A stretch of DNA of 531 bases from Escherichia coli. Its GTDB lineage: Bacteria > Pseudomonadota > Gammaproteobacteria > Enterobacterales > Enterobacteriaceae. This document shows positions 1 to 531 of the stretch, in pieces (positions within the stretch are counted from its first letter, which is position 1; each line of letters opens with the position of its first letter). The stretch is taken from assembly GCF_003334335.1 (NCBI RefSeq), contig NZ_QOWQ01000174.1, one strand, 5' to 3'. Below the pieces are notes generated by a model that worked only from the letters and a program-made list of their open reading frames with translations, searched no databases and was not told the origin of the DNA. Made by a program: the position numbers and the translations under genes.

Positions 1-45
1 CCCGTTGCTGAAAAAGAAAGCATCAGGCGATTAGCAGGGTATCAG

Positions 46-132
46 TTACCCGTTGAAATTTTTAAATACCTCACAATTCAGGCGGTTGACTGTTGTCTGG
101 TTTGCGGGGAGTTTGTTAAAAGAAACTGGCAT
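46..132 (-). CDS. Candidate small ORF (28 aa, MPVSFNKLPANQTTVNRLNCEVFKNFNG) with a strong SD
   Basis: On the - strand: SD AGGGGGA (145->139), 6-nt spacer, ATG (132->130), stop TAA (48->46). Spacing and SD strength are good, but the peptide is short, has no recognisable family features, and I see no clear promoter. Confidence 0.2.
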   Translation of the reverse strand: MPVSFNKLPANQTTVNRLNCEVFKNFNG

Positions 133-140
133 GGTGAATC

Positions 141-157
141 CCCCTGTGCGGAGGGGC
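141..157. repeat. GC-rich palindromic 17-mer CCCCTGTGCGGAGGGGC, copy 1 of 2
   Basis: 15 of 17 positions identical to 277-293 (CCCCTCTCCGGAGGGGC), which forms the + terminator stem. Both copies are self-complementary hairpins. Confidence 0.4.
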
Positions 158-206
158 AATCAGCAACTGGTGTTTTGTCACCGACCCTTATCCTTTCTGT
201 GCGGGT

Positions 207-530
207 TCAGGTGCTGATACTGAACTCACCGGGAGGCACCCGGCACCATGCAATGGCACATAGCGCCACTCTCCAGCCCCTCTCCGGAGGGGCTTTCTTA
301 TGGACAAAAAAAGCCCGCGCTGGGAGACGCGGGCGGCAAGGAATAAACAACAAAACGTGAAGTAATATTTCAGCTGGCGAATAATATCCGACAGTAATCA
401 CTCTGCGCAATAGCGCGGCCTTTTTCGTATTGCGGGCTGTAGTCTTCCTCCTGCCATTGTCCTGTAACTTCCGGACTTCAGCCCGTTCCCTCATCTGACT
501 CACAACATTATCCCGACCGGGAGGATTCAT
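207..530 (-). CDS. Hypothetical ORF (107 aa) from the six-frame track; doubtful as a full-length gene
   Basis: Open frame from ATG 530-528 to TGA 209-207. The N-terminal ~55 codons (530 to ~365) are basic and protein-like (MNPPGRDNVVSQMRERAEVRKLQDNGRRKTTARNTKKAALLRR...). The frame then runs through the - strand terminator (334-304) and the + strand terminator hairpin before reaching a stop, and it is antisense to the + ORF. Its RBS would lie outside the window. Confidence 0.2.
   Translation of the reverse strand: MNPPGRDNVVSQMRERAEVRKLQDNGRRKTTARNTKKAALLRRVITVGYYSPAEILLHVLLFIPCRPRLPARAFFVHKKAPPERGWRVALCAIAWCRVPPGEFSIST
275..300 (+). terminator. Rho-independent (intrinsic) terminator, + strand
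   Basis: Stem 275-282 AGCCCCTC pairs with 287-294 GAGGGGCT (8 bp, 6 G:C), tetraloop TCCG 283-286, followed by T-rich tail TTTCTTA 294-300. Sequence downstream of the same hairpin on the - strand is not T-rich, so the orientation is +. Confidence 0.6.
277..293. repeat. GC-rich palindromic 17-mer CCCCTCTCCGGAGGGGC, copy 2 of 2 (coincides with the + terminator stem)
   Basis: 15 of 17 positions identical to 141-157. Confidence 0.4.
304..334 (-). terminator. Rho-independent (intrinsic) terminator, - strand
   Basis: Stem 313-319 GCCCGCG pairs with 328-334 CGCGGGC (7 bp, all G:C or C:G), 8-nt loop 320-327. On the + strand it is preceded by A7 (306-312), so on the - strand the transcript reads GCCCGCG-UCUCCCAG-CGCGGGC-UUUUUUU-GU. 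Downstream on the + strand (GGCAAGGAATAAAC) is not U-rich. Confidence 0.7.
304..380 (-). ncRNA. Candidate small RNA on the - strand ending at the - terminator; 5' end undefined
   Basis: On the - strand a U-rich stretch (CUUCACGUUUUGUUGUUUAUUCCUUGCC, about 362->335) directly precedes the terminator hairpin with U7. This resembles the 3' module of Hfq-dependent sRNAs. A weak promoter-like pair lies upstream on the - strand: TTGCGC (410->405), 18-bp spacer, TATTAT (386->381). Confidence 0.25.
519..528 (+). promoter_or_regulatory. Shine-Dalgarno / ribosome-binding site for a + strand gene starting at the right edge
   Basis: GGGAGGA at 519-525, a near-consensus SD, then spacer TTC and ATG at 529-531. 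If the true start is the first codon beyond the window, the spacer is 6 nt, which is also well placed. Confidence 0.45.
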
Positions 531-531
531 G
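529..531 (+). CDS. Possible start codon of a downstream + strand gene truncated by the window end; product unknown
   Basis: ATG at 529-531 lies 3 nt after the SD GGGAGGA. Only the start codon is inside the window, so no protein evidence is available. The same CATG palindrome also provides the ATG of the - strand ORF 207..530. Confidence 0.3.

Follow-up and report, generated by a model that had tools for sequence, protein, structure and literature searches.

The DNA considered here is a stretch of 531 nucleotides (nt) from Escherichia coli (assembly GCF_003334335.1, contig NZ_QOWQ01000174.1), referred to below as the window, and its subject is a gene for a small RNA (sRNA) of the STnc100 family (Rfam RF02076). 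In annotated records of identical sequence, the window is the intergenic space that reaches from the end of a small DUF3927 gene (at 34) to nanS-p (ATG at 529), which encodes a sialate esterase of the SASA family. The plus strand from 129 to about 302 is almost certainly the STnc100 gene, a copy of an already catalogued family that is carried by lambda-like prophages of E. coli and its relatives. Family membership, a folded architecture with covariation, the lack of a conserved open reading frame (ORF), and a genomic position that is kept in several genera are demonstrated here. The locus holds the following features.

129 to 302, plus strand: STnc100-family sRNA of about 173 nt (cmscan match to RF02076; own covariance model R1)
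93 to 122, plus strand: candidate sigma-70 promoter with −35 element TTGTCT at 93-98, 18-nt spacer, extended −10 element TGtTAAAAG at 114-122 and predicted start G129 (read by eye)
275 to 302, plus strand: intrinsic terminator of the sRNA with stem 275-294, loop UCCG and tail UUCUUAUG (terminator scan; last helix of the RF02076 model)
306 to 487, minus strand: putative convergent partner sRNA of the EcOnc08/21/42 family, with terminator stem 334->313, U7 at 312->306 and the seed-like CCUUGCC at 341->335 (terminator scan, probe match)
403 to 428, plus strand: second terminator-like hairpin CTGCGCAATAGCGCGG (stem 403-418) with tail CCTTTTTCGT, upstream of nanS-p (terminator scan; conserved in Sakai Sp5 and in a Shiga toxin 1 (Stx1) phage)
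1 to 34, plus strand: 3′ end of the upstream DUF3927-family coding sequence, stop codon TAG at 32-34 (RefSeq annotation of the identical prophage in E. coli JE86-ST05)
516 to 531, plus strand: ribosome-binding site GGGAGG and start codon ATG (529-531) of nanS-p, a SASA-family sialate O-acetylesterase (annotation of identical records)

The covariance-model search places the segment in its family. Positions 100-305 of the plus strand match RF02076 over the whole model (1-206 of 206) with 143.2 bits and an E value of 1e-33 in cmscan, for a curated gathering score of 47 bits, and the own covariance model R1 returns 93 bits at 126-256. On this strand, cmscan gives no Rfam family other than RF02076; ARAGORN calls no tRNA-like or tmRNA fold in the window, and cmscan finds no match to the tRNA clan of Rfam. 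An earlier note, made from the sequence alone, had read 131-300 as a structured non-coding RNA or regulatory 3′ untranslated region (UTR) that it could not assign to a family. Its preference for a structured RNA over weak ORFs is borne out by the full-length match, the covarying helices, and an ORF that is not conserved. The cmscan run that it proposed supplies the missing family name, and its limits lie no more than 2 nt from the present estimate of the RNA.

Prophages in many E. coli genomes, JE86-ST05 among them, and the temperate phage PhiR5_1 contain the window with 100% identity. In the identical records, it lies downstream of the gene for the antiterminator Q and upstream of holin and lysozyme genes, with a methyltransferase gene, three tRNAs, and a TerB gene between Q and the window in one of them. 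In the lambdoid late operon, this place is the “moron” insertion site, which in Stx phages is occupied by stxAB. The order of Q, STnc100, and holin/endolysin recurs in Klebsiella pneumoniae and Superficieibacter, which puts the copies of these hosts, like the present one, in the lambdoid late or moron location between Q and the lysis genes. At the nanS-p end of the window, the 9-mer ACCGGGAGG (228-236; A228 with the 5′ arm and loop of helix P5 of the sRNA) recurs exactly at 516-524, the ribosome-binding region of nanS-p. This repeat is possibly a coincidence, a recombination trace, or a site for which partner RNAs could compete.

Architecture and covariation of the RNA

The segment is one multibranch domain, which a long-range helix closes and a pseudoknot ties together. 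Its elements, all on the plus strand, are listed below.

129-136 with 244-251: P1, the long-range closing helix (cmscan structure line)
137-140: linker (J), AAUC
141-145 with 152-156: P2 (cmscan structure line)
168-172 with 179-183: P3
203-210 with 220-227: P4; A228 lies between P4 and P5
229-233 with 239-243: P5, which abuts the 3′ strand of P1
159-218: pseudoknot of AUCAGCA (159-165, in the P2-P3 linker) with UGCUGAU (212-218, in the P4 loop)
129-251: conserved pseudoknotted 5′ core, P1 to P5 (structure line of the cmscan alignment; covariation in 47 homologues)
252-274: variable 3′ segment AAUGGCACAUAGCGCCACUCUCCA of 23 nt, unalignable among homologues, the putative seed region

In the window, cmscan and RNAfold show P1, P2, P4, P5, and the terminator as paired. 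The earlier note had described five packed stem-loops followed by a terminator; the hairpins and the terminator lie where it put them, but the hairpins are parts of the single domain rather than an independent row. The predicted fold of 129-305 has an energy of −74.1 kcal/mol (RNAfold), which corresponds to z = −3.15 relative to dinucleotide shuffles, one of 200 of which folds as well. The reverse complement is almost as stable (z = −2.98), and energy alone therefore leaves the strand undecided. Three observations set the plus strand: the covariance-model match, the side of the T-tract, and G-U pairs that would read C-A on the opposite strand. One such pair is G204-U226, and 24 of 47 homologues have G-U in this column.

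Homologues were collected with a scan for the P2-hairpin pattern in bacterial contigs from one genome per species. It gave 26 loci in Citrobacter, Enterobacter, Klebsiella, Lelliottia, Leclercia, Phytobacter, Superficieibacter, Trabulsiella, Franconibacter, and Pseudocitrobacter, and all 26 are matches to RF02076 over the threshold, often several to a locus and some in tandem. The same motif found only five loci in viral contigs, three of which (L003-L005) were discarded as G+C-rich chance matches that lack the rest of the RNA. Searching with a covariance model of 32 cores then yielded 49 copies from at least 12 enterobacterial genera, and the 47 distinct sequences among them, E. coli included, were tested for covariation.

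Standard pairs fill 90.5% of the cells in this alignment, compared to 81.8% in shuffles. The covariation score is 0.306 against 0.150 in shuffles, none of 500 of which reaches it, and at most 0.123 in controls with slid partners; double-sided changes occur at 15 of the 24 pairs. The compensatory changes that the earlier note had proposed to look for in homologues are thus present. The alignment was fitted to the model, which favors structure, yet P1, P2, and P5 also emerge from an unfitted MAFFT alignment by RNAalifold. These three helices are all that the plain alignment returns, and the variable middle needed realignment to the covariance model.

Change is distributed unevenly over the core. 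Compensatory substitutions saturate P3, P4 (seven of its eight pairs), and the pseudoknot. P1 and P5 have some clean double changes, and P2 and P5 are nearly invariant across genera in stems and loops alike. Copies from at least 12 genera show little or no variation in the blocks GGUGAAUCCCCCU..GCGG.GGGGC and ACCGGGAGGCACCCGGCACCA, and a full-text literature search for these motifs found no description of them. A conserved GCG/UGC trinucleotide stands directly 5′ of P4 in nearly all copies (alignment columns 83-85, window about 200-202), and its flanks are variable.

The pseudoknot is absent from the cmscan structure line and is not mentioned in a 2026 preprint on the Pas sRNAs and STnc100. 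In minimum-energy folds, the variable middle switches between P4 and the helix of the linker with the P4 loop. The two strands change together in homologues, as CCAGU/ACUGG, the strand-swapped CUGGU/ACCAG, ACAGCA/UGCUGU, CCGG/CCGG, AUAAU/AUUAU, ACUGGCAA/UUGCCAGU, and others. An Stx1-phage copy that is identical to the window from 220 on has CUGGUG/CACCAG in their place. Because the strands lie in three registers in both the MAFFT and the covariance-model alignments, a column test was impossible, and an alignment-free comparison of cognate with non-cognate strands was used instead. Over 28 distinct strand pairs, the longest complementary run averages 5.96 for cognate and 4.99 for non-cognate combinations, and the mean duplex energies are −9.4 and −6.6 kcal/mol, respectively. 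None of 5000 permutations matches the cognate complementarity, a count that is not a true probability since the sequences are related. It is the number of independent strand types that makes the helix convincing. P4 and the pseudoknot may form together or alternate.

A further pairing is conceivable at the 3′ end. GGAGGGGC occurs both at 150-157 (3′ arm of P2) and at 286-293 (3′ arm of the terminator), and as judged from this repeat an exchange of arms between P2 and the terminator would in principle be possible. Sakai Sp5 has a weaker form of the duplication; it does not occur in other genera, where the terminators are of a GCCUGC type.

Transcript ends, coding potential, and the convergent partner

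The primary transcript most likely runs from 129 to about 302, some 173 nt, and would start from an extended −10 promoter of its own. TTTGTTAAAA is kept in the Sakai Sp5 and PasD2 loci. A −10 hexamer (at least four of six matches, with A at position 2 and T at position 6) is present in 25 of 43 distinct homologues, compared to 11.7% at random positions in the same loci, and mostly ends 6-7 nt before the first base of P1. The published RNA-seq start of the relative PasD2 (NC_011601, position 741157) is the G equivalent to window position 129, and the PasD2 length of 172 nt is the distance from that G to its terminator. Additionally, an RpoD ChIP-exo signal has been reported at Salmonella STnc100 promoters (PMC10794520). 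At the other end, the stem 275-294 (8 bp, six of them G-C, with a loop of 4) is followed by TTCTTATG and qualifies as an intrinsic terminator in the terminator scan, which finds four terminator-like sites in the window for 0.8 expected. The second plus-strand hairpin (403-428) sits between the sRNA pair and nanS-p, inside the minus-strand partner RNA.

One alternative considered is a role mainly in cis: the RNA would belong to the late or moron transcript, as a 3′-UTR-derived or processed RNA and as a terminator and insulator that keeps polymerase in the lysogen from reading on into nanS-p and the lysis genes. Such a role would fit the STnc100 copy that lies 75 nt downstream of stx2B in Stx2 phages, the two plus-strand terminators that stand in series before nanS-p (275-294 and 403-418), and the conserved position between Q and the lysis genes. 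It would also fit the size of EcOnc27, the Stx2-phage copy, which runs as 235/247 nt on Northern blots, about 60-70 nt beyond the promoter-to-terminator prediction (Tree et al. 2014 supplement, PMC4104026); this longer form possibly starts further upstream or is processed out of the moron mRNA. What speaks against a mainly cis role are the −10 hexamers at fixed distance in most copies and the PasD RNA, whose 5′ end is the first P1 base and whose 172-173 nt equal the distance from promoter to terminator. Moreover, complete units occur in tandem arrays, and a plain insulator would not need a covarying, pseudoknotted domain of 120 nt. The cis reading is accordingly unlikely as the main one, but cis and trans roles are not mutually exclusive. 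STnc100 RNA is probably in the main an independent gene, because −10 hexamers precede most members and the PasD2 5′ end falls at the equivalent of 129. The label “regulatory 3′ UTR” in the earlier note thus fits only in part; it retains a place insofar as the longer Stx2-phage form may include upstream 3′-UTR sequence.

The tandem arrays are found in Superficieibacter prophages, which carry two to four complete STnc100 units (L012 1237-1932; L016 4655-5098; L020 2360-2811; L017 10941-12519), each with its own −10 hexamer, a distinct tail, and its own terminator. The L012 array has a period of about 257 nt and sits between Q and an endolysin gene. Other copies have neighbors of their own. In Phytobacter massiliensis (L013 7213-7478), the unit abuts a tRNA-Arg(UCU) gene on the same strand, the type of tRNA (argO) found upstream of stx in Stx phages. 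An Enterobacter kpr-6 locus (L026, about 2860-2900) resembles this arrangement, and ARAGORN calls no tRNA there. In Leclercia adecarboxylata (L031 868-965), a match to isrI (RF01392) lies immediately upstream of the STnc100 unit and forms another island-sRNA cluster.

Two other explanations of a terminated RNA in this region were rejected. Lambda 6S RNA is the short terminated pR′-tR′ transcript of the lambdoid late region. StxS, likewise a short terminated RNA of this region, is also an Hfq-binding regulator. Unlike the present RNA, StxS and lambda 6S start at pR′ right after Q and end at tR′. A pR′-tR′ leader of this kind does not apply since the RNA lies about 600 nt beyond Q, with moron ORFs between, has its own −10 element, and shares no sequence with them. 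A put-like antiterminator RNA was dismissed as well, as every unit has a working terminator of its own behind it and the relatives accumulate as RNAs of about 172 nt.

That the segment encodes a small protein is very improbable. Three ORFs exist: 131-217 (28 aa), 175-360 (61 aa), and 530->207 on the minus strand (107 aa). The start codon of the first (ATG131) lies inside P1, 2 nt from the 5′ end of the RNA, and has no Shine-Dalgarno sequence. In homologues, the peptide from the same start varies between 8 and more than 65 aa, and the conservation of its first nine codons follows solely from that of P1 and P2. All three frames occur across the invariant P5 block, with the readings SPGGTRHH, REAPGTT, and TGRHPAP. 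The 61-aa ORF extends through the terminator. Several phage records list the minus-strand ORF as a hypothetical protein (“ORF b70” in the Stx1 phage AP005153); it crosses two terminators, has only 44 aa in Sakai Sp5, is flagged as “frameshifted; internal stop” in E2348/69, and is without RefSeq annotation in the identical prophage. The earlier note had called both plus-strand ORFs weak, rightly so given the variable length and frame of the first and the terminator crossed by the second, and it had named translation of a conserved ORF as evidence that would count against a structured RNA; length and frame of the first instead vary among homologues. A coding role does draw on the annotation of the 107-aa ORF in some phage records and on ribosome footprints, as some STnc100 copies in EDL933 show appreciable coverage (RCV up to 3.2; PMC5331693).

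The sRNA faces a second transcript unit on the opposite strand. A strong minus-strand terminator (334->313, followed by U7) ends 5 nt beyond that of STnc100, the layout of a dyad. The published Northern probe for EcOnc08/21/42 matches exactly over 35 nt at 380-414, and 487->306 is nearly identical to the RIL-seq sRNA E2348C_1409.E2348C_1408.IGR of enteropathogenic E. coli (EPEC). CCUUGCC at 341->335 is complementary to GGCAAGG, the target motif of that sRNA. Going by these matches, the partner is a member of the EcOnc08/21/42 family. Its 5′ end is uncertain; the EPEC estimate puts it at 487, and it possibly lies beyond 531. AsxR and AgvB (RF02703/RF02702) have no match in the window even at E values up to 10, whereas Sakai Sp5 gives 88 and 41 bits. 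Unlike these anti-sRNAs of 51-60 nt, the partner here is much longer, at about 180-270 nt. It runs antisense to the nanS-p 5′ UTR, and its fold is unremarkable (z = −0.79). In prophage PP6 of EPEC E2348/69, the orthologous STnc100 is split in the P2 loop by the IS4-like ISEc13 (L036 9049-9111; L037 about 248-335), and the 3′ half of STnc100 and the partner sRNA are intact despite the insertion.

Relatives, modularity, and a possible working

Several relatives of this RNA have been studied. In EDL933, 11 STnc100 copies are transcribed according to RNA-seq, one of them confirmed by Northern blot (PMC5331693). EcOnc27 (sRNA103), the copy downstream of stx2B in E. coli O157:H7, is cross-linked to Hfq, and both EcOnc27 and EcOnc13 were detected by Hfq-CRAC and Northern blot (PMC4104026). 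Overexpression of sRNA103 raised the transcript levels of fimZ and espA by a route that is not established. “Convergent sRNA dyads” between a moron gene and a conserved downstream ORF were described by Tree et al. 2014 in at least eight Sakai prophages (PMC4104026). PasD1 and PasD2 of EPEC, which are distant relatives (PasD corresponds to EcOnc13 of EHEC), depend on Hfq for stability and form RIL-seq chimeras with targets that a motif in their 3′ tail contacts; chimeras and seed lie in the last ~50 nt (PMC8550237). A 2025 machine-learning study has linked variants in the Stx2-phage STnc100 copy to clinical outcome (PMC12711010). Reviews list the function of STnc100 as unknown, and the homologues are published as Hfq-bound sRNAs without an established mechanism.

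The present copy resembles each of these in part. The EcOnc27 of Sakai Sp5 scores 207.7 bits on RF02076 and has AsxR as its convergent neighbor. Both RNAs share the full-length model match, the same helices, the position between a moron gene and nanS-p, and a convergent minus-strand sRNA. They differ in 3′ tail and terminator sequences and, by compensatory changes, in P3, P4, and the pseudoknot; the upstream gene here is the DUF3927 ORF and not stx2B, and the opposite-strand partner is not AsxR. The copy downstream of stx1B (AP005153, Sp15 type) is essentially identical over window positions 220-531, which hold the 3′ tail, both terminators, and the minus-strand partner, and it differs in the 5′ flank, P3, P4, and the pseudoknot strands. 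The window is thus a mosaic of the same modules. Like PasD1 and PasD2, the RNA lies directly upstream of a sialate esterase or lysis genes and has the 5′ end GCAUGGUGAAUCC, a related core, and a length of about 172-173 nt; PasD is Hfq-dependent. It is unlike PasD in P2, P5, and tail, and PasD2, with 41 bits on RF02076, stays under the gathering score. Positions 129-305 do not contain the PasD seed UGUGAG and the tails cannot be aligned, so the copy is not counted as a PasD RNA. The EcOnc13 probe in the machine-read supplement mismatches the EcOnc13 locus and was disregarded as a probable row shift.

The mosaic has its joints inside the RNA. Positions 220-305 are 100% identical in Stx1 and Stx2 phages whose upstream halves differ, and many phages, including those of Klebsiella, share only the 30-nt P5 block (222-252). 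The breakpoints of homology between phages (window 220/222 onward) fall at this invariant block. The sequence comparison indicates that recombination occurs within the conserved core and that the invariant blocks also act as recombination joints, because many phages share only the P5 block and others only the 3′ half. The tail (252-274) cannot be aligned among the window, Sakai Sp5, and PasD2 and is identical in Stx1-converting phages with a different core. At the position equivalent to it lie the PasD seed with its RIL-seq chimeras (PMC8550237) and the Hfq-CRAC peak of EcOnc27 (PMC4104026).

A working can be proposed from these parts. In a lysogen, transcription would start at G129 from the extended −10 sigma-70 promoter of the RNA and would end at the terminator 275-302. 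The nearly invariant pseudoknotted core (129-251) would be a stable scaffold that buries the 5′ end in P1 and gives a compact, nuclease-resistant body. The single-stranded 252-274 together with the terminator hairpin and the U tail would make up the Hfq-binding, base-pairing module, which would act in trans on mRNAs or on other sRNAs. During lytic growth, the RNA polymerase modified by Q would read through the terminators at 275-302 and 403-418 into nanS-p and the lysis cassette, a step that is taken from the known behavior of Q.

Alternatively, the invariant core could itself be the functional unit, binding a protein or small ligand as a decoy, sponge, scaffold, riboswitch-like, or catalytic RNA, and the tail could be incidental. 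Blocks that stay invariant in at least 12 genera beside the compensatory P3, P4, and pseudoknot would suit this, as would the combination of a multi-helix junction with a pseudoknot, which is typical of RNAs with a tertiary fold; the published studies, moreover, give the family no function. The Hfq cross-links and RIL-seq chimeras of the homologues nevertheless fall in the 3′ tail and not in the core. There is no conserved alternative pairing of core and terminator, the spacer between them ranges from about 20 to 60 nt, and tandem units are self-contained. No tRNA-like fold (ARAGORN) and no other plus-strand Rfam family is present, and recent horizontal spread, together with recombination at these blocks, could account for part of the invariance. 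A core-centered function is therefore doubtful as the whole explanation. A riboswitch or cis-acting attenuator was rejected separately: spacer and terminator are unrelated between copies and variable in length, units occur in tandem, and the genes downstream differ.

For the favored account as a whole, in which an STnc100 sRNA with its own promoter works as a modular, Hfq-dependent seed RNA and is read through in lytic growth, the probability is put at about 80%. Its trans-acting seed mechanism, drawn by analogy with the homologues, is held with moderate confidence. Next to the ribosome footprints and the long EcOnc27 form described above, several points weigh against this account. A consensus promoter scan of the window finds no site, and the −10 element TAAAAG does not end in the conserved T. 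Termination and Hfq binding are both poorly served by the U-tail UUUCUUAU, which is short and interrupted; because of the interruption, some read-through at 275-302 is plausible. All expression evidence comes from homologues and not from this exact copy. Finally, the stems and loops of P2 and P5 are closer to invariant than a passive scaffold would require, and the seed model does not explain this. That these elements stay fixed and the sequence between them drifts may tentatively be taken to point to a specific partner. It is possible, if on the less likely side, that the 5′ core is a dedicated recognition module for a phage or host factor (a protein, a ligand, or RNA polymerase), a fixed scaffold that carries a swappable seed and is shuffled by lambdoid phages through recombination at P5.

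STnc100 is among the most frequently annotated enterobacterial sRNAs, with more than 7,500 copies in E. coli, and the identification itself therefore adds little. The analysis contributes an explicit architecture that includes a covarying pseudoknot, evidence for a promoter of its own, the exclusion of the ORFs, and the identification of the convergent partner. Neither the pseudoknot nor the modularity of core and exchangeable tail was found described in the literature searched. The complete convergent sRNA dyad is present in a non-Stx phage, PhiR5_1, which infects the laboratory strains E. coli C and K-12 and would offer a safe system for its study. STnc100 adjoins Shiga-toxin genes, and the testable architecture given here points experimenters to nucleotides that are worth mutating.

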